A stretch of DNA of 59,907 nucleotides, filler included, from Basidiobolus ranarum (GCA_040143965.1; 3 parts of 3 records of this genome joined end to end with filler, not necessarily neighbours in it); one strand, 5' to 3'. Positions 700 through 40,037 are shown, counted from the first letter of the whole stretch. Numbers and translations are program-made. The notes: generated from the letters alone by a model not told the origin.

Positions 700-1824
700 C
701 CTGATTACTATATAAATGAATCCCAAAATTGGGCCTATGCATGCACAGCTCAAATACATGAACCTCAGACTGTAAGTGAGGCCCAAATGGCCCTCACATA
801 AATTTTGGAGATTTGTAATGGCTGATGAGCTCCAGGCTTTGATTGATAATCAAACCTGGATTTTAACCAACTTACCTGATGATAGAAAATCAATTGGCTT
901 CCAGTGGGTGTTTAAAGTAAAATATAACTTTGATGGCAATATAGAGAGGTATAAGGCTAGACTCATAGCCAAAGGCTGTTCCTAAGCACTAAGAATAGAT
1001 TACATAGAAACTTTTGCTCTTGTAGCAAAGTTTAATTTGATTAGATTGATTTTAGCAATTTCAACTAAATATCAGTTTGTTATACATTAAATGGATGTTA
1101 AAACTGCTTTTTTGAATGGTGAGCTTGCTGAGAGGATCCATATGGACCACCCAGACAAATATATTGACCCAGAAAACCCTAAAAAAGCTTACAGACTCTT
1201 GAAAACATTCTATGGCTTAAATCAATCTCCAAGAGCTTGGAATAGCAACATAGATGCTTTTTTGGAAACACTCAAATTCCAAAAGAGTAATGCTAACTAT
1301 AGTATGTACATCAGGCCAGATAACACAAACCCAGTTCTACTAGCCTTATATCTAGATGGCCTTATTATAGCAACCAATGACTTAAAGACTCTAGAGAGAA
1401 CCAAATCCAGCTCATCTGCCAAATTCAAAATGACTGATCTTGGTAAACTCATGTACTATCTGGAAATCCAAATTAAGATAGATAGAACTACCAAAACAAT
1501 AACTTTAAACCAGTCTAAGTATATTCTAGATACACTAAAGAAGGTTAAAATGGAAAAATGGAATTCAGTATCTATCCCAATGGAGACAAATCTTGACTTG
1601 ACCAAAAATGGCTCAAATTAGATGTTCATGTATTCAAATGAAAGCCAGAAATTTCCTTATCAATCTATGTTTGGTAGCTTGATATATATCATGGCTGGAA
1701 CACAGTTAGATATTGCATATTCTGTGGGAGTTATGTGCCAATATCCTTGAAATTATGGATCTGTACTAATTGTAATCATAGCAGTTAAGCAGATTTTCAG
1801 ATATTTTAAAGGTACTGTGGAACT
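700..1824 (+). mobile_element. Degenerate Ty1/copia pol remnant (reverse transcriptase)
   Basis: Motifs WVFKVK...RYKARLIAKG, MDVKTAFLNG, YGLNQSPRAW, LYLDG (decayed YVDD), KFKMTDLG; several stops and frameshifts. Confidence 0.92.
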
Positions 1825-9652: not shown

Positions 9653-10521
9653 GCTAGTTGCATCATCATACATATAATACTGCATTACGTTCTATCCATC
9701 AACAAACTCATGTACACAATTTGACCCTTATTTCTTCCATAAACGTCATTGAACTTGAATAAACTAAACTGTTTGTCAACTCATTTCTTACGTAAAATTA
9801 ACTATCTGGTCTTGTATGGTGGAAAATCAATCCCTTAATCCCCTGTCACTCTTCGCATTTGCTTGCTGCTCAAACCTTTGCGAAACAAGGTGAACCCTGC
9901 ATCGATGCATTGCTTGGTTCGGAACATGTCTTGTTTAAACGACTACAGTGTACATAGTTGAGAATATGATGTAAAAACAAAGGTATTCAAGAGTATTTTG
10001 TAGAAAGGTTGATTTCAGTTGATCGAATAAAATATTCCATTGTTCATCCCAAAGAAAGGTAGATACGGAAAGGGAGAGTAGAAGGGGAATAGGAAAGAGT
10101 GGAGAATATGTATAAAATCAAAATATATATTTACTTGGAAAGAAATAGTAGATGGTGAAATCAGATAACATCTCAAATAACACTGAATTTGAATGGTCGC
10201 AAAGTCTAAACAACAATGAAAAAGCGTAAAACATTGGAAAATCATTCGTTTGCTTATCCCGGTAAGAAGTCTATGACACAGTATGAACGAAAGATGGGTG
10301 AAAATCGGAGGAACGTCAAAGACGTGGAAAGTTAAAAAGAATTTACAGAAACTAGCAAATCTTTTCTAAGCGGTCATAACCTAGATACAGGTTCATATAG
10401 AGTGGCTTGAGTTAAATTAGGTAAAACAGTGGTGAAGAAATAGTTTCTATTCCAACACAAAAATACAAAGACCATTCGACCATACCATTCAAACTTCAAC
10501 GTTGTAATCTTGGCCTGATCT

Positions 10522-11414: not shown

Positions 11415-12250
11415 GACTAAGTTTGGGGAGATAAGATAGTATGAAGATAGGGATCAAAGAAGTTAAAAGTATATCGAAGAAGTTTCAAAAAGGCTCTGAA
11501 GTGAGCAAAAGGTTTAGAGTGTCAAGCGAGTAAGGAGAGAAGTTAAGGAGATCAAGAGAGCTATTGCTAGATATGGACTGATGAAGGTAGATTACTCCAG
11601 ATAGTTGTTCAATGAAAGATTAGTTTAAATCAACAAACTAATTATCATATTTGATTAAATTAAGATTGGATGCGAATGGTCATTCATTTGTCACATTCAC
11701 AAATGAATAATATAGCCATTTTATCAGATTCTGATTAAGTTTGGGATATGGAAGCTACATGATAATAATAATAGCCCTAAATCTAAGGATGTTACAGCAA
11801 ATAACCAAGAGCTGTATATAGTCCGCTACATAACATCCGTTTGAGAGGAAAGAGCATCACGGGCGGTGATACGAGGGTTGCTAATAATAATGAATCGTGA
11901 TCAGATAGAGCTAGGGTTAGGGTTGGAAGTAAGGATATAAAGATTGCACATCTCTGCGTTTGAAACATGTTTGAGATGCATTGCTTCTCACCCTCGATGG
12001 TTGTACCTGTTTAGAGTGCCTTCGACGACTGATGGAGGCAGCTCATTAGACAAATCAAACTCAAGTCAACTAAACCAAGGGGTCAAGCGGCAAAGAGATA
12101 GGGGTAGGAGTAACAAAGATCGTATACATATGTTCCAGAATAGACTACTCTTCTTGAAACATGTCCATAGCTTTATGATACGATGTAATGAAAAATAATA
12201 TCCATTCTACATTATAAGGAAAGCCAAATGCTCCTTGATCACCAAAGATC

Positions 12251-16507: not shown

Positions 16508-16842
16508 ATGTCTGCTTCTGTGAGTACTTTTTATCATTATCGTCTGTGATATTCAGTATTGCTAATATTCAAATATTCAGCAAATCTACAAGTTCAAGGT
16601 CGGAATGACTTGCGCCGGATGCTCTGGTGCCGTTAACAGAGTTCTTAACAAATTGAATGGTATGTTTCTCTGCTACTGGCTAACGAACTGAGTACGTTAT
16701 ATTAAATCAGTTGTTTATTTCAGGTGTTGAGAAAGTAGATATCTCTTTGGAGGATCAAACTGTAATTGTTGAAGGAACCGCTTCTCAGGAAGATATTCTT
16801 AACACCATCAAGAAGACCGGAAAAACTGTCAGCCCTCTATAG
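16508..16842 (+). CDS. ATX1: Copper chaperone Atx1 (HMA domain); 2 introns
   Basis: MSAS/QIYKFKVGMTCAGCSGAVNRVL..., with the MxCxxC motif and C-terminal KKTGK. Not in the ORF track. Confidence 0.95.
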
Positions 16843-17934
16843 ACGCAGAAGATCGATGGATACTTCGCCAAGAAATTGGATTCCTACTTTCGATATCTTT
16901 CATCATTGAATGCGTATTCCACAATTCAGAAGTCAATTAGATATCATGAAGATGGAAGTATATATCGGCTGTACATTCTTTCGGCTGTACATTCCAAATT
17001 TTTAGAAATATTTATAGAAATAAATACTATATACTCCTAATCGTCACCTTTATCAACGATGCTTATTATGTATATGAAATCAGTAATGCATTTACTTTGG
17101 GTTCACTGTGGGTATTCATTCTATATTCTCATTACGATCTGGCCGCTTTGTGTTTCTTCCAGTAATAGGATTTCCTTTCTGTTTCTCGTTGAGTGACTGG
17201 CTGGATTAAAATGGCATCGAAATATTCAGATGTAACTGATGAAATCAGATAAACAGAGGGAAGGTTGTGGGGCGACCTAGAGTCAGAGAGCAAAAGATTA
17301 TCACGAAACTCATAGCAAAGCTCATCCATTTTTACCAAAGCATTTCCTATTACCAGTAGTTAATAAGGCTATTCAGTAATTGGTGGTATAATATTATATA
17401 TTCCATAATATTGCTATGCATAGTTATAACAAATCGCTCATTTTATATTGACACAATTTATATCAACTCTCACAAATCAACCTATATTTATTACTGATCT
17501 GTTGCGCAACAATCTGTTTAGCAAATACTAAACAGCTTTTAACTGATAACACTTATTACTATGTTCATAGTATATTATGGACTCATTGGCTGGCCAATAT
17601 TTCTTGCATATATTTTGTGATTTGCTATTGGTTGATATGTTGAGATTGTCCTACTAATGTTTCCTAATCCAATCTCAATTTACTGCCCGTATGAACCATC
17701 ATTGCCTTTTTGAGGGTTAGACAGTTTTTTTATATTGTAACCCTTTATTTTATATTGTAACCCTAAGACTATAGCTTGGAGAGTATGATTCTGGATATAT
17801 TGCAGTCAACTCATCTAAAACCCATAATATATTGACACTTCTGAGCTATTGAGAAAGATTTGCCTAAAAAGTTCTTATTTGATTTAGGAAAGGACTATAA
17901 GTGCGGCAAAATGAAAACTTAGCATGGTAGTAAA

Positions 17935-19926: not shown

Positions 19927-20026
19927 NNNNNNNNNNNNNNNNNNNNNNNNNNNNNNNNNNNNNNNNNNNNTTAATTAATTAANNNNNNNNNNNNNNNNNN
20001 NNNNNNNNNNNNNNNNNNNNNNNNNN
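19927..20026. other. Artificial 100-nt contig spacer
   Basis: N run with a central TTAATTAATTAA (stops in all frames). Confidence 0.98.
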
Positions 20027-20277: not shown

Positions 20278-20880
20278 TCAGTATCCACACTTTTCTTTTA
20301 CTTGGGAAATATCTGTCCCATTTGCGAAGAACTCACCGTAACTTTTTGAATATTGATTATACATTTTCACCCAGTTTTGAACACATTCGGTGCACAGTTT
20401 CTCATTTGGGATATCTTGCAAGTCTACATCTTGATGGTCCTTCAGTTCATCTCCTTCTACAATGAGACAGTACTGCTGTTGTGAATTCCGAGTACATCCA
20501 ATAGCGACGATTGGTTCATAATTCTTCAACATGTACTCAAGTGCTTGAATCACGACTTGGGATGAGTCTTTAGAGCAATCTGTTTGAATTTTCGTGGAGA
20601 GAGTATCTGTGGTAGATTTGTCACATCGTGGAGCTGAACATATTGTGTCTAGAAGAGAAGAGTATTGTTCGACTTTACTGATATCATAGCCGTCCAAAGC
20701 AATAGAGTTAGCTTGTGACCAGATCTGACCGAAGGGAAGACAAGGCTCAATATCTGTTACTATGGAAAGTAGTGATTGTTTACATGTAACTGAGAGTTGT
20801 CCAAGCACATTGTCTATAGGGGCAGGATTAACCCACAGAATAGAAGTAGTGATAAGTGTGAATGATAGAGTGGACTTCAT
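20278..20880 (-). CDS. Secreted 10-Cys protein, paralog A; intronless
   Basis: Signal peptide, 10 Cys, colinear and highly similar to 21453-22064. Confidence 0.88.
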   Translation of the reverse strand: MKSTLSFTLITTSILWVNPAPIDNVLGQLSVTCKQSLLSIVTDIEPCLPFGQIWSQANSIALDGYDISKVEQYSSLLDTICSAPRCDKSTTDTLSTKIQTDCSKDSSQVVIQALEYMLKNYEPIVAIGCTRNSQQQYCLIVEGDELKDHQDVDLQDIPNEKLCTECVQNWVKMYNQYSKSYGEFFANGTDISQVKEKCGY

Positions 20881-21452
20881 AATTGAAAGGAGATGTTGGT
20901 ATCACTACTTTTTGTGGGTTTAGTTATAAAAGATACGTAATTTTCTTGCTTAAATAGCGGGGAGGTAAATGGAGCTTTCATAGTACACACACACTGATGC
21001 CATGGAACGTGCGAATTCGGTACGCGTCGGGCTGAGTCGATAGAGTTCATATTTGTCATCTATCTTGAAATACTTTTTAAATTAATATCAAGCCCACTCT
21101 ATATTATCCACAATAAAAACAGGGTTTTAGTTTATCATCTCAGTTTTAATTGCTTGTCACATCAACCCTATATCTTTATATTGTGATATTCTCGCTAAAA
21201 GGTAAACGATATCCGTAGAAGTATAGTCAATACAAAGTCATTTATTGATTCTGGGAATATCGTTCCAAAGATACTTGAGCTCATCATATTTATATTATTA
21301 GTAAGATTAGAAAATGAATGATAGAATTGGTTATTTATTAATTCGAGTTCTGATGATATAGTGTACAGCAGATGGATGTTTTCAAATGTAGTGGATGTGA
21401 AGTTCAAGTAGGTAGAGGTACCAAGCTAAATGTATGTGTACGTGAAGGTATG

Positions 21453-22064
21453 TTAGTAACCACATCGCTCTTTCACTTGAGCGATATCAGTCACATTTGC
21501 AAACAGATCTCCGTAGCTATTTGAGTACTGATCATACACTTTCACCCAGTTTTGTACACAATCAGTGCACAGTCTTTCGTTAGGAATATCTTGTAGGTCC
21601 ACATCTTGATGGCCTTTTAGTTCGTCTCCCTCTACAATGAGACAGTACTGTTGTTGTGAATTCTGGGCACATTCGACAGCTATGAGTGGCTCGTAGTTCT
21701 TAAATGCATACTCAAGTATTTGTACCACTGTTTGTGATAGATCCTCCGAACACTCTGTCCGAACCTTTGTGGCTAAAGCATCCGTGATCGTCTTGTCACA
21801 TCGTGGTGCGGAACACATTGTGTCTAAGAGCGTGGTGTACTGGTCTACCTTAGTTGAATCATAGTTCTCCCAGTCGATCGAGCTAGTTTGTGACCATATC
21901 TGACTGAAAGGTAAGCAAGGTTCATTACCTGTTACTATAGAGAGTAGTGATTGTTTACAGGTAGCTGAGAGTTGGCCAAGTATGTTATCTACTGGTGCAG
22001 CATTGGTGAACAGAGGTGCGGCAGCGATCAAAGCTAATGAGAGAGCGAATTTCATGGTGGACAA
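21453..22064 (-). CDS. Secreted 10-Cys protein, paralog B; intronless
   Basis: Signal peptide and the same Cys spacing as paralog A. Confidence 0.88.
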   Translation of the reverse strand: MSTMKFALSLALIAAAPLFTNAAPVDNILGQLSATCKQSLLSIVTGNEPCLPFSQIWSQTSSIDWENYDSTKVDQYTTLLDTMCSAPRCDKTITDALATKVRTECSEDLSQTVVQILEYAFKNYEPLIAVECAQNSQQQYCLIVEGDELKGHQDVDLQDIPNERLCTDCVQNWVKVYDQYSNSYGDLFANVTDIAQVKERCGY

Positions 22065-22344
22065 TGCTGTTGAATGTTATATTGGTTTTATATTTCTGTA
22101 TAGAATATTGACCGGGGTAAGGCGCTTTTATAAACTCAAAGGTTTGAGTGGGCACTTGCTAAGCCCATAAGAAAATGATTTTTGGGCTGATTTTACATGA
22201 GTACGAATCAAATGTGAGTGGTGTTCTTACGTTGGTTGGATATTCATGTGAGGCTAGGGGCAGAGTTACAGGAAGGGAAGGGAAAGGAAATTAATATACA
22301 GAAGTAATTCATCTAGCAGTAATTAAAGAGTAGCTTTGTCTTGC

Positions 22345-24157
22345 TTAGCAGGCTGGTACATTCACTGCAAGGCCACCTAAAGATGTTTCTTTATATTTGG
22401 ATTGCATATCCAACCCAGTCTGTCTCATAGATTCAATTACTTGATCAAGTCCTACTCGGTGTAATCCATTCCCATTGAGCGCTAAATGAGCAGCAGTAAC
22501 AGCCTTGACTGCTCCAAGAGCATTTCTTTCAATACAAGGTATCTGTACCAGACCATCAATTGGATCACAAGTCAAGCCAAGATTGTGCTCCATACCGATT
22601 TCAGCAGCGTTTTCAACATGATGTGGAGTGCCACCCATAACAGCGGCAAAACCAGCAGCACTCATACTGCATGCCACTCCAATCTCACCTTGACACCCTA
22701 CTTCGGCAGCGCTAATACTAGCACCTCGTTTATATAGCATTCCAACGGCAGCTGATGTCAATAAGAACTCCATAACATCAGTTTCCGGATCCTCAGATAA
22801 AAATTCAAGATAATATTTGAGTACAGCGGGTATCACCCCCGCTGCACCATTGGTAGGTGCAGTAACCACACGACCTCCAGCCGCGTTCTCTTCGTTCACA
22901 GCTATAGCGTATACAGAGAGATAGTCTAAGGCCGGAAGTGATAGATGTTTGACCTTAGGCTTAGGGAGAATGCTTTTACTTATAAAGGCGGTCTCCTCTA
23001 CTACCGAAGGAGGGCTCGATGTATTACCAATGGTCGTGGAGATGCGTGTAGCTTTTCCAATAGTACTGCGAGAATACAAACCACGAAGTAATTTTTGGTA
23101 CAAAACTGGGGCACGCCTCTGGGTATTAAGTCGGCCTGGAAGAGATTGATCCATTGAAAGGCAACCATTTTTAATAGAAAGATCCATGGTATTCCAAATT
23201 TGGAATAGTTTGTCTCGAATCTCTTGCTCTGAGCGCCACTGCAATTCATTTTCATAAATTACTTGAGCAATAGTCATATTTTGTCGGTCACAAATTTGAA
23301 TTAGATCTTGGGCATTTTTAAATGGTAGTGGAGCCATAACAAAGGTTTTCTCTTCGGGTGTCTCGTCAAGTGAGGAAGTTGTATCCGAGTGGGTTTCTCT
23401 AAAGTAGACATTCTTTCCGCCAGCAATCTGAGTTTCTTCCTGGAAAATGAAGCCTCCGCCTATTGAGAAGTATTCATTTGTAGCTAACATATCCCCATTT
23501 TCATCGAATACGGTGCATCTCATACCGTTGGGATGATGAGGTAAACTTTCAAAGTAATGGAACTGAAGATCTTCACTGGGCTTGAATTGAATTTTTTTGG
23601 TGCCATTTAAGCTAATGGACTCGGTATCCTCCATAGCCTTAACACGAGATTTGATGGAACTAGTCTCCACGGTTTCAGGTAATTCACCCTCAATACCCAT
23701 TAATGTAGCTTCGGGAGTGGCGTGACCTACACCCGTTAAAGCGAGAGAACCATACAAGTCAATTCGTAATTTTGTAACTTTGTCGAGAAAACCTTGACTA
23801 ACTAAATCACTAACAAACATTTTTCCCGCACGCATTGGGCCAACTGTATGACTACAATAGGTAACGGAATTAGATGGCATAACTATTTTGGACAACGTTT
23901 GTATATTGGTAAAAATTTTACCTAGATGAGGGGCCAACTCCAATAGAAAACATATCAAAGGTGGAAACAACACCATGCTCAGCCTCCTCATGCACACGGT
24001 CGCTACTGAGCACTTCCGGCATTGGTGTATTGCCTAGAGAAGAGTAACGACATAAAGTGGGGAATAATTTAAGAGCAGTTTTGGCACCTCTGCGAGAGAT
24101 TACTCTCGTAGTGAGGGATGTTAGGTGACGGTGTAAAGGAAGGTTCGACTTGAGCAT
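22345..24157 (-). CDS. Fe-S-dependent L-serine dehydratase (single-chain SdaA type), likely mitochondrial; intron 23852-23921
   Basis: [86 protein letters not shown]; Arg/Ser/Leu-rich N-terminus. Confidence 0.95.
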
Positions 24158-25170: not shown

Positions 25171-25194
25171 CTAACCCTAACCCTAACCCTAACC
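25171..25194 (+). repeat. Interstitial telomere-type repeat (CTAACC)4
   Basis: Four perfect units that read TTAGGG on the minus strand. Confidence 0.8.
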
Positions 25195-25659
25195 ACTGAT
25201 TGGAGGATATTAACGATCTAGGTGTTTGAATACATAAGATCTTCAGTAAAGCTACAGCTCTTTCCCCGGCTATTGCTGGCTGTACTTGGTAAGCGGTTTA
25301 ATGCTGATTTCTATTCTCGACTATTATTCCACCTTCAATTGATCGGAAGCTAAATGCTAGTAAAGCCAGTAAATCATATCCATGAATGCATGGAAACGTC
25401 GATTACATCGTAAATCCGGTGATGTCATGTCAACCCAGCCAAATGAGTAAGAGAAGATCAAGTTTTTTAGGGAGAATTTGAAATCTTTAAGCCATCTGTC
25501 TTTTAGGCAAGCAGGTTTAATATAAGCTATAAAAGCAGTTACCTATGTAGATGGTCTTCCTAAAATATAAATCGCTGCCGTATCACGTCCCACTACAAAC
25601 GTTACACATACTACGCGTTCCATCATAGGATTCGCTCGTACCACTATTCAGTTTCTATA

Positions 25660-25676
25660 TTATCAGATTATCAGAT
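25660..25676 (-). promoter_or_regulatory. Two overlapping ATCTGATAA GATA sites
   Basis: TTATCAGATTATCAGAT, ~340 bp upstream of the subtilisin ATG. Confidence 0.45.
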
Positions 25677-26013
25677 TATTTAACAAGTAAATCCTGGCAT
25701 GCATCTATAGAAAAAGTAAAGAATCGGCGAAAAACATACGAAAAGAAGTTTCTCCTTTGGGGATCATGTCCTTGAATTGGGATAAAGTGTTTGCATCGTA
25801 TGCTGTGCTCGCTTCTTGCTTCATTCGAATCTCCTTTCCTGCCCTTTGAACGTGAAAGAGTAATGTACTTTGGACCGTTACTTTTTTTCTGAAACGCACC
25901 CTTCCAAAATTGAAGTGGTTGCATGTACTGCTATATTTAAAATATCTATAAAATCAACCAGCTTCGTAGTAGTTAAGGTATTCAGCTCGCAATCCAGGTC
26001 TGCACAATTGACT

Positions 26014-28760
26014 ATGAAGCTTCAACAATTGTTCCTACTATCGGCGCTGATAATGGCCGACGCCATTCATGGGCGGGAAGCTTTTCTCAAAAGGTCCATT
26101 TCCGAAGCTCATCAAGATGCTAGTAGTGACAATAGGAGTATTCTACCAAACGCTTTTATCGTTGAATTCAACGAGTCTGGCAGCGAATCCGTTCCTGAAC
26201 AAGAACATCATCAGTTCCGTACTACTCTGAATGATATGGGAATTGCTTTCAAAGAGCGTACTTCTTTTACCGATTTTATGAATGCTATATCTATTCATGT
26301 GGATCCCAAAGATGTGGGATCACTCCAATCTTTACCAAACGTGAAAGCTATTTGGCCTGTAGTAAGTGGAAGTGGATTTTGTATCTAATATACATTAATA
26401 TAACATAGTTTTATTTTAGATCAATCATAAAAGAGGAGTAGGCCTGTCTAAAAACCCTAGTAAGGAGAAGAAGAAAGAGGAAAAGAAGCCCAAAAAATTG
26501 GTCCAATCTCTGCCCTCGAACTTGATCGCATCTCCTCACTTACTGACCGGCGTAGATAAAGTCCACAAGCTACTTAAGAATACTGGGGCTGGTATTAGGG
26601 TTGGTGTAATTGATACAGGTATTGATTACACTCATCCTGCTTTGGGAGGTTGTTTCAAAGGGAAACACTGCAGAGTCCAATATGGCTACGATTTTGTTGG
26701 TAACGGATATGATGATACTCCAGAATCTCTAGCTCCCAGTGCTGACCCAAAGGATTGTGATGGTCATGGTACTCACGTTGCCGGAATCATTGGAGCTAAT
26801 GATAAAAATTTCGTGGGTGTCGCACCAGAAGTAATCTTTGGAGCTTATAAGGTGTTTGGTTGTGATTCAAACTATCCTGAAGATATGGTCATTAAAGCCA
26901 TCGAAATGGCAGTCAAAGATAAAATGAATGTCATCAATCTTTCAATGGGTACCTCATCACCTTTCCCGGATGATCCCTTGACTAGAGCATTAAACAAAGC
27001 AGTGGATAAGGGAGTGGTCGTTGCAGTAGCAGTCGGAAATAGTGGAAGCGGTGGACTCTGGACCTCAGGTTCTCCTTCTACTGCAAAAAATGTCATCAGT
27101 ATCGGATCCGTGGACAATTCAAAATATCCTGGACAAACATTTAAAGTAAGCGGACTAAAGAACAAATCTGATGTGAATGAATTCGGTAAGTTGGTTTATT
27201 CTGTGGGATATTTTCTACCCTTTCCGAGTCTAATCAATGTTTTATTATTTTGTTTCCTCAGTTGCTGGTTGGGATGGCGCAAAACCAGTAAAGCTCCAGA
27301 AGGTACCTCTCATAGTTACCGAAGGCAACCCTTGCGAACCATTTGTTGGCCAAGACTTCCGTGGCAAGCTGGTACTTCTAAATCCATTCCATCACAACTT
27401 CTGCAGTCATGGACAGCAGGCACTATTCGCTCAGGAAGCGGGTGCTGTGGGGGCTCTGTCCTACTATTCCAACTATTACATTCCTTCCTCAAATTTCCCC
27501 GGTCTCAAGATTCCCTTGATGGGATTACATGATAGCTATGCTGAAGCTCTTAATACCTATGTTGCCGAAGGAAGAAATCTAACCATTTCTTTCAACTCTA
27601 CTCCAAAGTTATTTTCAGTTCCCAACGGTGGAAAACTTTCTGACTTCACATCTTGGGGACCAGATTTCCAATTGAATATCAAACCTGATTTAGTCGCTCC
27701 CGGAGGTACCATATACTCCACTTATCCAGTTAGCCAAGGCTCTTACATCCACATGGACGGTACTTCCATGTCTTCACCATATGTAGCTGGTTCCGCTGCT
27801 TTATATCTCAAAGCTAAAGGAAAGGTACCTGCCTCCTCTGTCCTTGGTGCCTTCCAGAACACAGCTAAACCTCTTATTGAAGGAAAGAATAATACTTTAG
27901 CGACCATAGTGAAGCAAGGAGCGGGATTATTGAACGTTTATGATGCGATTGCGGCAAAACTTACCATAACTCCATCCAAGCTGAGCTTGAATGATACAGT
28001 TCACTTAAAGCCAGTGCAAACCTTGAAAGTGAAAAATAACGATAAAAAGGCGATCACGTTCCGTATCTCTCATGATTCAGCATTTACCGTCAACGGTTAC
28101 AATAATAAGCAAAAATTGTTAACTAGAAGCGAAACAACTTTCCTTAAGACTTCTGCTAAAGTTAAGCTTAGCAGAACTAAGATAACTATTCAACCAGGCC
28201 GTACAGTTTCTATCACAGCCCACTTCACCCCTCCAAAGGTCAACAAAACAGATTTCCACTTGTATAGTGGATTCATTCGTTTCACTCCCGTCAATTCAAA
28301 GGCTCAAGTCCTAAGAGTTCCTTATCTTGGAGCTAGCGGTGACTTCCATAGTAGATTTGTGATTAAGAAATCTAGTGGAGATGAACCATTTATGTTCAGC
28401 GAAGGTACCCGTGAAGAACAGACTGTCTACACATTCAAAGACAAGGATCATCCCTTGATTTATCTTTTTAACAATCACCCTACAGCTTTGGTGAAAGGAA
28501 CTTTGCTGAAGTCCGGAAAAGAGATTGGCAGCTTTGTGGAGGCCCAAAACATTCCCCGTCAGATTGGCTTCAACTATTCATTTGTCAGATTTGATGGCAC
28601 AGTGGTCAAATCTGTCCGTGGTGTTAAGAAGGAAGTTTCAGTACCCAATGGTTCAGGATATCGTGTCAAGTTAGAGCTACTTCGGCCATTAGGTAATCCT
28701 AATTCCAAGAAGGATTATGACGTCTGGACTTCGGAAAAATTCCAAATCCAAAGAAAATAG
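26014..28760 (+). CDS. Secreted subtilisin S8A protease (I9 prodomain, PA insert, Fn3-like tail); introns 26362-26419 and 27186-27261
   Basis: Catalytic triad in VIDTGIDY, GHGTHVAG and GTSMSSP; SWGP, KPDLVAPGG, QGAGL; signal peptide. Confidence 0.95.
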
Positions 28761-28870
28761 AATAATGCCGCTAGAAATGATTAATGCTGCTGGATGATGA
28801 AATCCCAGTCAAGAATATTTCAATATACCATTTAATACTTACTGTTAGTTGAAACTATAATAAATTCCCT

Positions 28871-28980
28871 TTATCAGATTTGATTTAAGCTTATTCGTTA
28901 CTCAGTTGTGTAATATTACTAAAAGTAGCAATGAAACAGCCCAATACAAAATACGAAATTATCTGATTGATTTATCAGAT
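28871..28980 (-). promoter_or_regulatory. Cluster of three ATCWGATAA GATA sites
   Basis: TTATCWGAT at 28871, 28959 and 28972. Confidence 0.5.
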
Positions 28981-29550
28981 GCAGATGTGAACTAAATGAT
29001 CAAGTGAATATATAGCAAAATGATCCTGAAGCTAGAATACTTGTGGTATTAATGTCTCTTATACAAATTGAATGTTGGGTCCAATACCTCACAGCATTTC
29101 CCTCAATATCTCAATTGATGCATGAGCGTACTTGTCGGCTGATGAAAGTGGAAAATCACTTAATGGGAAATATATTCCTTCCCATAGTCTCTAATGGGGC
29201 AATTCAACACATTTGGCGCAAGAATCACCAGCAGATCACAATCGGAATTCTGTAACTTTCTCACCCACGAAACACGTGTTTAGTAGTCACCGAATTCATC
29301 TAGAAACCCCTCTCCATATCACTTTGATACTTAAAATTTTTCAATGGTTGTCAAAGTTCCACGAGAAAGTAGTTTATATCCGAATTGAGTAAATGCTTGG
29401 TGATACATTCCATGAGTACCCATGTTAACTGGGGAAGAAAATGTGTGGGCAATGTATATAAGCTCGACCTTCCACACTCTAGTTAATTCGCAATTCATCT
29501 TATCTTGCAATCCATCTCTTCAACTTTCAAGCAATTGAAACTGTACAAAA

Positions 29551-30705
29551 ATGTCTCTCGCTACTACTGCTGATGCTTACTATTGCAATGCCCAAAAGCC
29601 CTGCACACGTGAAGGATTTACTTGCAAAGATAATAAGTACTGTACCGCTGAAGTGTCCTCCGCAAGCTGTGCCACTCCATTTGTTGCTCGTATTAGCAAT
29701 GTGTATACTCAGTTCTGCAACGTACCCGATACTCTTGCCGCAGAAGTAACTGATGCTACTGGTTGCGCTTCATTTGAAAGTTACCATCAAGGTGTCTGCC
29801 TTTTAAAGGAACCCACTACTAATATTGTAGCCAAAACAGTAGACTCATACTTTTGCAGTGCCAGCAAATCCTGCCCCATCGCCGGACATACTTGTAAAGA
29901 CAACAAGTACTGTGTCTCAGAGGTTGAAGCCACTTCTGATTGCGGTAAGCAGGCTTTTGTTGCTCGTGTCAATGACGTCTACACCAAGTTCTGTAAGGTT
30001 CCTGAGGTTCTTAACGCTCAAGCAGTTGATGCCTCTGCCTGCACATCTTGGGAAACTTTCCATCATGGTGTTTGTCTTTTAAATAATGCCTCCCCTCAAA
30101 CTGCCACTAGCATGTCCGCTTACTTCTGTAACTCAAGCAAGAGTTGCCCCCTACCTGGTTATAGCTGCCATTACAGCAAATACTGCCTCCCAGAAATGTC
30201 CACCAACTCAGTATGTGCTAGCGAAAGTGCTAAACCCTTTGTCGCTCGTATCAACGATACTTACACCTACTTCTGTGATATTCCTAACTCTCTCGATCAA
30301 TATGCCGCTAGTAGCATCGATTGTGCCAACTGGGAAGATTATCACTCCGGAATTTGTATGTTGAAAAAATGTAGCCAATCTCAAGCTGCCTGTATCAATG
30401 GTGATAACGAAATGTGCTCTATGCTTGGTGCCCAAGCTGCTGACATCAACTGCTATGGCCATAACGCTCATGGTGGCATTATGGAGGCCAAATCAGCTGG
30501 TTTAAGTGGAGGAAAAATTGCTGGTATTGCCATTGGCTCCATCGCTGGTATCGCCCTTCTCGGTGCCGCTGCCTTCTTTGCATTCCGTCGTAGCAAGAAG
30601 AACAAGAAGACTAATGTCACTCCTGGAGTTCCATCTATGGAAACTCTTCCTAACTACTCCTCCGGCAATGTCCATGTTGTTGTAGATGAGAAAGCTCGCA
30701 TTTAA
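29551..30705 (+). CDS. Single-pass membrane protein with three 8-Cys repeats; intronless
   Basis: Three ~90-aa repeats, a GxxxG-rich TM followed by RRSKKNKK, and an LPNY tail; TATATAA at ~29455. Confidence 0.9.
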   Translation: MSLATTADAYYCNAQKPCTREGFTCKDNKYCTAEVSSASCATPFVARISNVYTQFCNVPDTLAAEVTDATGCASFESYHQGVCLLKEPTTNIVAKTVDSYFCSASKSCPIAGHTCKDNKYCVSEVEATSDCGKQAFVARVNDVYTKFCKVPEVLNAQAVDASACTSWETFHHGVCLLNNASPQTATSMSAYFCNSSKSCPLPGYSCHYSKYCLPEMSTNSVCASESAKPFVARINDTYTYFCDIPNSLDQYAASSIDCANWEDYHSGICMLKKCSQSQAACINGDNEMCSMLGAQAADINCYGHNAHGGIMEAKSAGLSGGKIAGIAIGSIAGIALLGAAAFFAFRRSKKNKKTNVTPGVPSMETLPNYSSGNVHVVVDEKARI

Positions 30706-31089
30706 ACTGGTTTCCTTTAATTCTAAACCGCATAAATTCATCCTTTAAAGCATATTTGGAAAAAGCAATTCCATCTATTAGTTCGACTAAATATATCAGC
30801 ATTTTCATCATAAACATTTAAATAAACTACTGATTAACTGCACAAATCATATATATATATTTAACTGTGTGCCTATTATCTAGCAATCAATAAACGAGTT
30901 GCGATTGAAAAAGATTCATTGAAACCTCTGCTACAAAAAGATAGCACAATATAGTCTTCCTTAACATACATCTATGGAAACCACTCCATCACCGATAGCG
31001 ACAATCTTGCATAATTACGCAGAGCATTTTGAGAGTATTCATAACATGTCAATGATTTAATTGTTTCTGGAGGTCTAACAGCTCTTGCA

Positions 31090-31430
31090 GACAACGAAAA
31101 GATCGGTCGAGGGTCCTAGGAACCCCTTACCAACCTTAATATATTCTGACAGGATAGGTTTATCCTTGCCACGGGAAATTTTCTCAACATCTCTGGTCCT
31201 GATTCTTTCTACTGCTTCTCTTTCTAGGATCTCGTCTAAAAAGAATTCCTCGACACAAATAGACCAGAGAATAGCTCCAAGAGAGTGGTTATCAGACTTA
31301 CGGGCTCTTCATATCTGCATATTTCTCAGGAGATACGAATCTTGTGGTGCTGGTAATATTTCCAGATGTTCTATCCTCAAGCTAAGTGAACTTGGATAAT
31401 CCGAAATCCAAAAGAGCCAAGATTTTTCGG
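31090..31430 (-). pseudogene. Protein kinase pseudogene fragment (subdomains VII-XI)
   Basis: Minus strand reads LLDFGLSKFT*...TTRFVSPEKY, then after a frameshift KSDNHSLGAILWSI. Confidence 0.7.
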
Positions 31431-31564
31431 TTGAGGGCCAAATAGTAAAGAAACTAAATTACCAAATTAAATCCAGGTGAATAGGAAATGATTACTTTAG
31501 AAAATGGATTTTATTAGGTGATATATGGATGCTGATGAATTGGTACAGTAATCTAAAACCAACT

Positions 31565-32142
31565 TTAAAATTGAGTAACAACGGCGGCAAAAAGACTAAC
31601 AAGAGCTAACATGCCACCAGTACGTAGAGTGGCGGCGGAGTTGGTGGCTTTTGGTGTTGTTTTATCACCAGTAGGAGTGGAGTTGGTAGTTTGAGAGGCA
31701 CCGCTAGCGGAGCCAGTAGGCTTAGGATTATTCAATGCATTGGTGGTGGTATCCTTACCAACTAGTTCACCGTACCAGTTGCAAATAGGTCTGAAGTTCG
31801 TCATAAAGATATCGAGGTCAGCCTTTGGACAATTTCCCATACATTCCATGGCCTCATTCATATATTTGTTGTAATTTGCGCCAGTCTTGTCACAGAAAAG
31901 ATCAAGAGACTTCAAGAAGTTAGGACTCTTAGGGTCCACAGTATATCCATCAACAAGCTTACTACCGGTTGTCTATTAAATACATCTGTTAGTATATAGC
32001 TTAGGCTGCAAGATGACACTAAAAATTTACTGACCATACTGCACTTGTCAATGCACTCAGGATTCTGAGGGAATGGATATTCGGTTTGAGCGGATACCAA
32101 GGCGGCAACGAAGACAGTGAAGAGAGTGGAAGTCAAATGCAT
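31565..32142 (-). CDS. Small secreted 6-Cys protein with Ser/Thr stalk and GPI signal; intron 31973-32034
   Basis: Signal peptide MHLTSTLF...VSA; C-terminal NSAA followed by a hydrophobic tail. Confidence 0.88.
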
Positions 32143-32260
32143 TGTTGATGGTTCAAGTGAATGATTTTCTATGAAGCTGTCGAAGGTTTTTATATGGATT
32201 TTTATACTTCCAAGATCTAATGAGGTAGTTTAAGTCAAATTGGGCTTGGTGCAACCTATT

Positions 32261-32281
32261 TTATCTGATGATTTATCAGAT
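32261..32281 (-). promoter_or_regulatory. Paired ATCWGATAA GATA sites upstream of the GPI protein
   Basis: TTATCTGATGATTTATCAGAT, ~120 bp upstream of the ATG; nearly identical to 28959-28980. Confidence 0.55.
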
Positions 32282-34069
32282 GGAGAATTGATCTTAGATT
32301 TTCTTCGGATCTGATTAATTTCTCTGATTAGTTCCTCTAAAGCTTTTATATCTAGGAACCAATTGCATTCAAGATTCCATTTGAAGATCAATTTGACTTG
32401 TACACAACATATCTGATTGCTAGTAATAACATATCTATTAGTCTCCGTGCCGTGGTATGTTTGTGGTATGTTTGGTGTTCTTCAATTACTAAATTATCTC
32501 CTTTACTCCGATTCGTAAGCTCGGAGTTACCTTTTATGGATAGTTACGAGTGGGAATTACTGCTTAAAACCAGTCGTAGAATCCAGTCGTAGAATCCAGT
32601 ACAATACCTTAACCGTACTGGTCATAAAGTGGCAACAACAACAGTACTAAAAGCATTTCCAGGATTGAAAATAGTTTTGGACGGGTAATTACGCTACCTT
32701 GAAACCGACATTTTCACATGTATAAGGCTGCAGTATAGACTCATATCTACTAACCTTGGAATATGAAAGAATGTTCATTCATCGCCTTGAACCAGTGCTT
32801 ACACGGAGACCACATTTTCCTAATTCAAATTAATATCAAAGGCTATGATATGAATACCTAGCTTACAATATGATGGTTGTGACATAAGTTTCCTGATACA
32901 CATGCCAACAAGTTATCCCTTAGGGGTAGTACACCTGAGAGACTACATCACAGTGCTGCTTTGAGTTATAGTTACTGAAAATATCCCTCTGTAACCAGTA
33001 AGCAGCAGCAATCAGATCTTTTGTCTTAGACCATATGATAGAGCCTGAGATACTCTTCCAATTCTACATACTCTTCCGATTCTCACCAGGGTTATCACTG
33101 TACAAGAAAATAAGTACCAAGAGGTTCAGTTGGAAGAGTTGATCAAAAAAGCCACTGCCATCCTTGATATAGTTATCATTACAACTATGAGCAAATAAGG
33201 AATAAACTGGACTAGCCTACCTGACCAGTACAATTTCTCTTGATCCCTTTACGACCATTAATAGAGGAATATGCAAGGCTATAGTCAACTCGAGCTGAAA
33301 AAACCAGGGATCAATATCTTTCCCACGTTTATTTGATCACCAGTATGGCAAGATGAGCAGGACAATGAATACTAATACCACCCATTCTCTTTCCGGTTAT
33401 GGCCATTAGGATAAATATTACCACATATAGTTGTTAAATGAAAGTATATATATTTTTCATAATTTGGGTACCGTCAAATCTTGATGGTTCTAGTATAAGG
33501 TAAACCTTTTCGCAAAGAATCATATTGAAAGAACCTTCTTATCACTTTACCATAATGTAAGTTACAGCTTGCAGAAATTAATTGAAAATAATGTTGTAAA
33601 TAAAGTAATATTAGAATGGAAAATTTATTAAACTATAAAACATGGCAGTTGGCCAATATCCTATCAACAAATGGAAATAGACAAGAATTAGGGTACATTC
33701 AGCACTTCTATCACTTCCATTATCTTGCCTGCAATCCTTACTGCTTCATGCCATGTATTCCTCTAAGTGTACTTCTCTGGAAATTTCCCATTTTTGGTTG
33801 GAATTAAGGTCAAGTGGTCCTTGAATAAGAAATTGGTATAAACTGTGACGTACTTCACTCAATTAGGTATTCGCTGTAGATGACTGTATTCTATTATGAA
33901 TATTAACTATCGTCCACTGAGAGCAGCTACGGTGTGTTTGGGATCATGATGAACTCCCTTCAAAACGTATAGTGCGTGAGATATCTATGAATTCTTTGCA
34001 AAAATATCGAGATGAAAGAGAATTACAAGGAATGAGACTCAAAATTGGTATTTATTTTGTATATATATA

Positions 34070-39259: not shown

Positions 39260-39937
39260 AAGACTTTGGAGAAAACCAAATCCAGCTTATCTGCTAAATT
39301 CAAAATGACTGATCTTGTTGAACTGACATATTATCTGGGAATCCAAATTAAGATAGATAGAACTACCAAATAATAACTTTAAACCAGTCTAAGTATATCC
39401 TAGATATACTAAGGAAGTTTAAAATGCATGAATGTAATCAAGTATCTACCCCAATGCAGAGAAATCTTAACATGACAAAAAATGGCTCAAATCAGACATT
39501 TCTGGATTCAAATGAAAGCCAGAAAATTCCTTATCAATGTGTGGTTCGCAGTTGGATATATATCATGGTTGGAACATGGCCATATATTGCATATTCTGTG
39601 GAAGTTTTGTGCCTACATCTTCAAAATTAAGGATCTGATCAGATCATATCAGTTCGGCAGATATTCAGATATTTGAAAAGTACTGCGGATCTATGCTACA
39701 ATACACATGTTCCGGATCAAATTTTGATCTGATGGGATATTCAGATGCAAATTGGGGGAGAGATATTGAAGACGGGAGATTTAAAACAAGATAATTATTT
39801 CTTTGCCATAATGGAGCTATTGCTTGGAATTTGAAGAAACAACCTACTGTAGCACTTTCAACAACAGAAGCTGAATATATGGCTGCCTGTGAAGCAACAA
39901 AAGAAGCACTATGGTTAAGAAAACTCTTAACAGATTT
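39260..39937 (+). mobile_element. Ty1/copia RT-RNase H remnant, same family as 700-1824
   Basis: Nucleotide-level match to ~1385-1820; [29 protein letters not shown]. Confidence 0.92.
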
Positions 39938-40037
39938 NNNNNNNNNNNNNNNNNNNNNNNNNNNNNNNNNNNNNNNNNNNNTTAATTAATTAANNNNNNN
40001 NNNNNNNNNNNNNNNNNNNNNNNNNNNNNNNNNNNNN
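39938..40037. other. Artificial 100-nt contig spacer
   Basis: N run with a central TTAATTAATTAA. Confidence 0.98.

Follow-up and report, generated by a model that had tools for sequence, protein, structure and literature searches.

Fungal GATA factors with two zinc fingers are iron regulators, in which the extra N-terminal finger reads an ATC half-site beside the GATA core. In the accessible portion of their study, Schrettl et al. reported that the extended sequence ATCWGATAA, and hardly the generic HGATAR, is 5.4-fold over-represented upstream of 49 putative SreA-regulated genes (PMC2610380), and the same portion presents the sites used in vivo by Urbs1 and Fep1 at Ustilago maydis sid1 and at Schizosaccharomyces pombe str1 and fio1-fip1 as fitting this consensus. 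Here, we analyze a 59,907-base stretch of DNA from the zoopagomycete Basidiobolus ranarum (referred to as the window at its full length), in which exact copies of this 9-mer, reading TTATCWGAT on the plus strand, form three intergenic clusters upstream of three genes encoding a subtilisin-like protease (subtilisin), a Cys-repeat membrane protein, and a small 6-Cys protein of the glycosylphosphatidylinositol (GPI) type. These three genes are a credible candidate for a fragment of an SreA/Fep1-type regulon, as predicted from the motif. The assignment of ATCWGATAA as the site of SreA and Fep1, made in the original prediction, agrees exactly with the extended consensus of SreA, Fep1, and Urbs1 in PMC2610380.

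Outside Dikarya, ATCWGATAA was pointed out, in silico only, in the promoter of the Mucor rfs gene, according to the available text of PMC9226013, and the excerpts at hand of PMC12638772 state that the Rhizopus microsporus GATA factors Znf4 and Znf8 “showed homology with SreA”. A GATA phylogeny that includes Basidiobolus meristosporus describes, in its accessible text, the siderophore-type group as “well conserved across evolutionary space” with no indication of the species that possess it (PMC5311114), and the portion of its supplement that could be accessed holds no list of Basidiobolus GATA factors. Literature searches retrieved no described iron regulon for zoopagomycetes, and no paper joining Basidiobolus with SreA, or Zoopagomycota with SreA and HapX. 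Concerning heme capture at the cell surface, CFEM domains are characterized by eight Cys residues and six helices, and the heme-binding ones use a conserved Asp as axial ligand (PMC13586796, in its accessible part). The S. pombe heme receptor Shu1 is GPI-anchored and has four Cys “reminiscent of” CFEM, and Fep1 represses shu1 within the adjacent iron-repressed run hhy1-str3-shu1, as described in the available sections of PMC13135908.

The B. ranarum locus shares with the SreA/Fep1/Urbs1 systems the identical 9-mer, its arrangement in pairs or clusters 5′ of neighboring genes, and the over-representation of the extended form alone, as in the SreA regulon (PMC2610380, accessible portion). It differs from them in its zoopagomycete host and in the flanked genes, none of which belongs to the usual siderophore or reductive-uptake repertoire.

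Three Intergenic Clusters of the Extended GATA Motif

The window comprises three pieces of ~19.9 kb each, of which the middle one has 19,911 bases, split by two N blocks (19927-20026 and 39938-40037) made of 44 N, 12 letters, and 44 N each. Since these pieces are three separate B. ranarum contigs joined end to end, genes across the N blocks are not true neighbors. The locus of the motif clusters corresponds to the B. ranarum genes K7432_005805 to 005807.

Scanning both strands of the window yielded 10 exact copies of TTATCWGAT, whereas 2.82 ± 1.70 copies (maximum 8) were obtained by chance, and none of the 100 dinucleotide-preserving shuffles of the whole window used as null model reached 10. 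Seven of these copies are clustered, at 25660, 25668, 28871, 28959, 28972, 32261, and 32273, every one reading on the plus strand with its GATAA core on the minus strand. All seven copies of the original prediction, and their grouping in three intergenic clusters, were thereby recovered. The remaining three copies, at 10160 (minus), 11721 (plus), and 17244 (minus), are isolated: one lies between the 3′ ends of the cytochrome c and Ras-like genes, one is 306 bp upstream of the Ras-like ATG, and one (ATCAGATAA) is ~400 bp downstream of an Atx1-like HMA gene and outside its promoter, so that their settings are 3′ of genes or near housekeeping genes. As three lone sites equal the chance expectation, the whole motif excess resides in the three clusters. 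For ten randomly placed sites, the probability of four adjacent pairs closer than 120 bp is ~3e-5, and that of seven out of ten falling inside 6.63 kb is ~8e-4.

Cluster 1 (25660..25676) consists of two overlapping exact TTATCAGAT sites, with the GATAA core on the minus strand, which precede the subtilisin ATG (26014) by 338-354 bp. The pair forms an 8-bp tandem (ATTATCAG x2.5), and its copies are therefore not independent but of one origin. Cluster 2, which as a whole extends from 571 to 680 bp upstream of the membrane-protein ATG (29551) and from 111 to 220 bp past the subtilisin stop codon, begins with a single exact TTATCAGAT site (28871..28879; 111 bp past this stop codon and 672-680 bp upstream of the ATG) and continues with the paired sites TTATCTGAT-TGAT-TTATCAGAT (28959..28980), a 22-mer in which the starts are 13 bp apart. 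Cluster 3 (32261..32281) is formed by the paired sites TTATCTGAT-GAT-TTATCAGAT, a 21-mer with starts 12 bp apart, which precedes the ATG of the GPI-protein gene (32142, minus strand) by 119-139 bp. TATA-like boxes precede the subtilisin, membrane-protein, and GPI-protein ATGs by 67, 96, and 46-65 bp (at 25947, 29455, and 32188-32207, respectively), and clusters 1, 2, and 3 lie 271-287, 475-584 (the pair alone, ~475-496), and 54-93 bp further upstream than these boxes. The distances to the ATGs place the clusters upstream of the subtilisin, the 8-Cys-repeat membrane protein, and the 6-Cys GPI protein, as had been proposed.

The composite elements of clusters 2 and 3 read TTATCTGATTGATTTATCAGATG and TTATCTGATGATTTATCAGATG. 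They constitute nearly one 21-22-mer, TTATCTGAT(T)GATTTATCAGAT followed by G in both, from which only one T differs, in agreement with the first description of the pairs at 28959 and 32261. Their likeness spans only ~26 nt, at 85% (repeat family D5). The original prediction had named a dispersed-repeat origin as an outcome contrary to it; this origin was not found and was rejected as the source of the sites, given that no repeat family covers them beyond ~26 nt. A search of metagenomes for TTATCTGAT-N3-4-TTATCAGAT returned at least 120 loci, none of which resembled the window beyond the 23-nt motif; one 23-nt blastn match occurred among these composite loci, which represent chance hits.

Selectivity for the Exact 9-mer

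Considering both strands of the window, ATCW precedes 10 of 200 GATAA sequences, ATCT (6) and ATCA (4) being the two commonest 4-mer contexts. When one mismatch to TTATCWGAT was allowed, 67 matches were found (the 10 exact ones included) against 62.3 expected, a number reached by 27 of 100 shuffles. The excess is therefore limited to the exact 9-mer, because the one-mismatch forms remain at the chance level. In the 5′ regions of the three genes (25200-26013, 28761-29550, and 32143-32942), we found two, four, and three HGATAR sites, seven of these nine being the extended form, at densities of 2.5-5.1 per kb that do not exceed the window mean of 4.16 per kb; both the enrichment and the HGATAR tests are within-window comparisons. 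In an unbiased comparison of k-mers, the three 5′ regions had just two 8-mers in common, TCTGATAA and ATCTGATA, each of them a segment of the motif. Taken together, the counts sustain the enriched, clustered, and intergenic character originally ascribed to the extended motif (10 copies vs. 2.82) and indicate that plain GATA richness is not its cause, since HGATAR stays at the mean.

Further genes in the window belong to classes for which nitrogen control is typical in other fungi, namely those encoding an amino-acid transporter, a gamma-glutamyltranspeptidase, a chitosanase, and lipases, and none of them has an exact site 5′. The region of the amino-acid transporter gene contains 18 plain HGATAR sites and no extended one.

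The 6-Cys GPI-Type Protein and Its Possible Likeness to CFEM and Shu1

The gene of the 6-Cys GPI-type protein (31565..32142, minus strand; P0005, corresponding to K7432_005807) encodes 171 aa in two exons (32142-32035 and 31972-31565) separated by one intron with a TACTAAC branch site. As read from its sequence, the protein has a hydrophobic N-terminal signal, a domain at residues ~21-110, a Ser/Thr-rich linker, and a hydrophobic C-terminus of the GPI type; the original prediction of a 6-Cys GPI protein is in line with these features. Its cysteines are C30, C34, C63, C80, C84, and C100.

Searching 1.84 billion representative sequences with phmmer returned 81 relatives at E <= 0.001, 43 of which at <= 1e-10, and several of them carry two to six copies of the domain. 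Among the ten relatives that were looked up, four belong to Basidiobolus, five to Mortierellaceae, and one to the mucoralean Gilbertella. The GPI protein is a member of an unnamed family of early-diverging fungi. A metagenome pattern search with four Basidiobolus sequences of this family gave 176 matches and no true relative. The long relatives P0009 and P0010 (780 and 530 aa; Linnemannia exigua and Mortierella sp. GBA30) and P0011 (753 aa) have four to six tandem domains. A tandem arrangement is also seen for CFEM domains in Dikarya.

The alignment of 42 members (P0005, P0006, and P0007 plus 39 further phmmer relatives, mostly single-domain) exhibited invariant C30, C34, S58, and C80, and G39, D49, F55, C84, and W102 were conserved in at least 90%. 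Judging by the sequence pattern, D49 is placed between the second Cys and the next one, as in the CFEM pattern. Family-wide, only C30, C34, C80, and C84 are invariant or nearly so, a number short of the eight Cys of CFEM. P0016 of B. ranarum is a clear homolog of the GPI protein (E 9e-23), and its second domain copy passes the Pfam CFEM gathering score (23.1 vs. 22 bits, E 7.6e-5); phmmer with P0016 gave no match in PDB. The AF2 model built with the alignment presents a confident four-helix domain at residues 21-110, with pLDDT block means of 93-98. When this model was compared with 48,161 chains using VIA-align, the top row was the Candida CFEM hemophore Csa2 (4y7s_A; Z 4.5, root-mean-square deviation 3.2 A over 73 residues, 16% identity). 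In the Atlas language-model search, CFEM-named clusters ranked first (0.92 and 0.91), and PF05730 was present in 12 of the 30 matches.

Several results weigh against this likeness and against the reading of the locus that includes it. The Pfam CFEM profile (PF05730) matched neither the GPI protein nor any of the 42 aligned relatives, even at E <= 10, and among 57 scanned relatives of the 81 it matched P0016 alone. The rows that follow Csa2 in VIA-align are unrelated proteins practically level with it at Z 4.3, and such values, common for helical models, lie within the noise; Foldseek with the GPI-protein model produced no match at E <= 0.001. In Atlas, chance yields scores of 0.9 in 4-10 of 100 cases, and the shared features (160 and 153) are below the 170 typical of family members. 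The GPI-protein profile aligned against PDB sequences retrieved antibody light chains only and no CFEM. Each supporting line is weak, but they are concordant, and on the grounds of sequence and model features we consider that the GPI protein is probably a true, distant relative of CFEM. The analogy with CFEM systems would be closer than first supposed, since the 6-Cys protein has the appearance of a remote relative of the CFEM/Shu1 type.

With the Candida albicans CFEM hemophores Csa2, Rbt5, and Pga7 (PF05730; PDB 4Y7S), the GPI protein would share a helical, disulfide-rich extracellular domain, a Ser/Thr-rich linker, and a GPI-type signal, and the conserved Asp of the hemophores may have its counterpart in the nearly invariant D49. 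Unlike CFEM, it has six Cys and not eight, and four predicted helices and not the six of Csa2 (PMC13586796, in its accessible part). The proposed likeness to Shu1, taken from the description of that receptor, comprises a small, putatively GPI-anchored surface protein with fewer than eight CFEM-like Cys, iron-type GATA sites, and a position among three adjacent genes. Whereas the neighbors in hhy1-str3-shu1 are a major facilitator superfamily heme transporter and an amidohydrolase-like hemoprotein, here their places are taken by the subtilisin and the membrane protein with Cys repeats.

The Cys-Repeat Membrane Protein and the Subtilisin

The Cys-repeat membrane protein (29551..30705, plus strand; 384 aa) exhibits three repeats of ~92 aa with eight Cys each, followed by a juxtamembrane stretch with four Cys (28 in total), a single transmembrane helix, the sequence RRSKKNKK, and a conserved tail of ~40 aa, and each repeat retains a YH-G-C motif with a conserved His. 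The earlier description of an 8-Cys-repeat membrane protein holds in the form of three such repeats on a single-pass protein. Its relatives are four and restricted to Basidiobolus, the 90% cluster being represented by K7432_005633 with 96% identity. An N-terminal signal peptide is absent from the protein and from these four relatives, and all five start alike; an upstream exon supplying such a peptide was ruled out by an in-frame stop at 29536-29538 with no AG between this stop and the ATG. By the positive-inside rule, the Cys-rich part would face outward. The ~315 residues with 28 Cys located N-terminal to the helix, with no signal peptide, would constitute an unusual topology if extracellular. 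The protein matched no credible Pfam family, its Atlas search reached a best score of 0.79 with no family, and its AF2 model was poor (pLDDT 50, pTM 0.28), with no recognizable fold. Its profile produced only a transmembrane-helix look-alike among PDB sequences, and kinship with the GPI-protein family was not accepted (hhalign probability of 34.7% over 34 columns).

The subtilisin gene (26014..28760, plus strand) was modeled with exons at 26014-26361, 26420-27185, and 27262-28760, encoding 871 aa, and two short introns of the GTAAGT...AG type. It corresponds to K7432_005805 (870 aa), with 100% identity over exon 3. Pfam detected Peptidase_S8 on two exons (1.1e-33 and 4.5e-15) and fn3_5 (5.9e-16), and the I9 propeptide and PA domains gave weak matches below their cut-offs; the protein first proposed to be a subtilisin is indeed a subtilase with the order I9-S8-PA-fn3_5. 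This domain order and the length are equal to those of fungal and bacterial Vpr-type subtilases, and the nearest relatives outside Basidiobolus are Vpr-like S8 peptidases from Mucorales and bacteria. Compared with these subtilases, the protein itself is unremarkable, and only its promoter context is noteworthy.

Conservation of Gene Order in Basidiobolus

Gene order was judged from locus tags together with protein identity. On a second B. ranarum contig (20,495 bases), the consecutive genes K7432_005632, 005633, and 005634 encode counterparts of the GPI protein (86%), of the membrane protein (96%), and of the subtilisin, the last as a 303-residue subtilase fragment (77% over 23% of the query). 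In B. meristosporus, K493DRAFT_348774 (GPI protein, 63%) and 348775 (membrane protein, 65%) are adjacent on one scaffold, and the subtilisin ortholog (73%) is on another scaffold. The pair of GPI and membrane-protein genes is thus kept across Basidiobolus, with the subtilisin as an additional neighbor in B. ranarum only.

A Predicted Iron-Repressed Set and Its Alternatives

As the most economical reading, we tentatively interpret the seven sites, at a confidence close to but below an even chance, as predicted targets of an SreA/Fep1/Urbs1-class GATA repressor that senses iron and has two zinc fingers; it would co-repress the three genes, with the GPI protein as a Shu1/CFEM-like receptor. By analogy with the systems described above, among which the shu1 run is a direct precedent, the three genes plausibly make up an iron- or heme-scavenging set. 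Under plentiful iron, the repressor would occupy the paired sites and the three neighboring genes would be shut off; under scarce iron, it would leave and the three genes would be expressed together. The GPI protein, as a putative cysteine-reduced and distant CFEM/Shu1-like domain, would be the best candidate for a surface receptor of heme or iron, the subtilisin could release heme or iron from host or food proteins, and the Cys-repeat membrane protein could act as a receptor or as a hand-over partner. The identity of the factor, the response to iron, the binding of heme, and the cooperation among the three proteins are what we infer in this scheme.

Besides the results on CFEM given above, other observations argue against this iron-repressed set. 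The window contains no classical iron-uptake gene (FTR1/FET3, ferric reductase, or siderophore transporter), and an Atx1-like copper chaperone gene in it (16508-16842, plus strand; three exons, an MTCAGC metal site, and HMA matches of 1.2e-05 and 2.5e-07 on two exons) is devoid of the motif on its 5′ side. Cluster 2 is nearer to the 3′ end of the subtilisin gene than to the TATA box of the next gene. The composites may share a small duplicated promoter piece, which together with the tandem in cluster 1 leaves fewer than seven independent events. To our knowledge, SreA does not typically target subtilisins; for secreted proteases, the classical mode of GATA control is that of the nitrogen type; and besides the motif, neither the subtilisin nor the membrane protein has a link to iron or heme.

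Among the alternatives, the sites could serve a single-finger GATA factor of another circuit, either nitrogen control, through an AreA/Gln3-type activator or an AreB/Dal80-type repressor, or white-collar (WC-2) light control in this phototropic fungus, in which case the genes would respond to nitrogen or light and not to iron. HGATAR is contained in every site, and the secreted subtilisin, one of the three genes, falls in the classical nitrogen-regulated class. Several early-diverging lineages also have enlarged GATA families, and in Rhizopus, GATA factors bind to regions resembling one another and have genes of amino-acid biosynthesis as targets, as stated in the excerpts at hand of PMC12638772. 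However, the generic HGATAR is not enriched in the three promoters, in which most sites are the full 9-mer, and because the one-mismatch forms occur at chance level, selection appears to act on the ATC extension, which a single finger would not need. The amino-acid transporter and gamma-glutamyltranspeptidase genes, moreover, have many plain GATA sites or no extended ones. We know of no match to a published white-collar site, and altogether we regard a single-finger factor as unlikely.

The real element could instead be the palindromic core ATCWGAT, or the 21-22-nt composite, recognized by an unrelated and possibly lineage-specific factor for a purpose such as cell wall remodeling, development, or gut colonization. 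ATCWGAT is a perfect palindrome, and extra cores devoid of the TTA flank are found by cluster 3, at 32309 and 32411; the composites share 21-22 nt including the spacer, beyond what two independent GATA sites would need; and no function is known for the families of two of the three proteins. Yet the TTATC (GATAA) half is exact in all seven clustered sites and A or T comes next, in keeping with the needs of a GATA finger, and the window has 25 ATCWGAT cores, of which the 15 lacking the full GATAA flank are scattered, except for those at 32309 and 32411 and a group at 39633-39727. We consider an element of this kind quite improbable.

Least probable, and in our judgment very much so, is that the sites have no function and are a chance excess inflated, within AT-rich intergenic DNA, by 8-bp slippage and by duplication of a small promoter fragment: although cluster 1 repeats a single 8-bp unit in tandem, the near-identical composites may leave only three or four independent origins, and the shuffles drew on the whole window and not on intergenic DNA alone, ~0.11 sites would be expected in the 2.4 kb of the three promoters (2.82 x 2404 / 59,731), so that even three or four independent origins are very unlikely, the composite flanks cannot be aligned beyond ~26 nt, and the one-mismatch relatives are not in excess, which indicates that the exact copies are not decaying repeat copies.

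Other Features of the Window

A fragment of a copia-type reverse transcriptase (RVT_2; 1091-1618, plus strand; 1.4e-39) is located at the start of the first contig. Two tandem genes on the minus strand (20281-20901 and 21456-22076) code for DUF7729 proteins that are secreted and contain Cys (E 6.9e-08 and 7.6e-09), just upstream of a gene for a bacterial-type Fe-S L-serine dehydratase (22348-23991; SDH_alpha and SDH_beta). The extended GATA site was found neither at the two DUF7729 genes nor at the L-serine dehydratase gene. Telomere-type repeats were also detected: (CCCTAA)3 at 25175-25192, intergenic, between the serine dehydratase and subtilisin genes; TAGGGTTAGGGTT at 11914-11927, upstream of the Ras-like gene; and intergenic AACCCT pieces at 17738-17766. 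These intergenic repeats may represent telobox-like promoter elements or interstitial telomere remnants.

Implications for Iron and Heme Acquisition in Early-Diverging Fungi

Iron regulation and heme uptake are essentially undescribed in Zoopagomycota, and Basidiobolus causes basidiobolomycosis in humans and animals. If the prediction fails, the locus would be an ordinary co-regulated set of surface proteins. If it is true, an early-diverging lineage would be added to the range of the SreA/Fep1 circuit with its exact 9-mer, the unnamed family of small GPI proteins (81 representatives, in Basidiobolus, Mortierellaceae, and Mucorales) would gain its first functional handle as CFEM/Shu1-like receptors, and the subtilisin and the Cys-repeat membrane protein would be nominated as new candidate partners in heme or iron scavenging. 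A bolder scheme, which we hold to be unlikely, is that an ancient SreA-type switch governs a lineage-specific heme-harvesting module in the gut-dwelling Basidiobolus, composed of a six-Cys, Asp-bearing GPI hemophore resembling the ancestor of CFEM, from a family present in Basidiobolus, Mortierellomycota, and Mucorales, together with a 28-Cys membrane receptor with no signal peptide and a dedicated subtilisin that strips heme from dietary or host proteins. Were this scheme true, CFEM-type heme capture and its control by GATA factors would be older than Dikarya.

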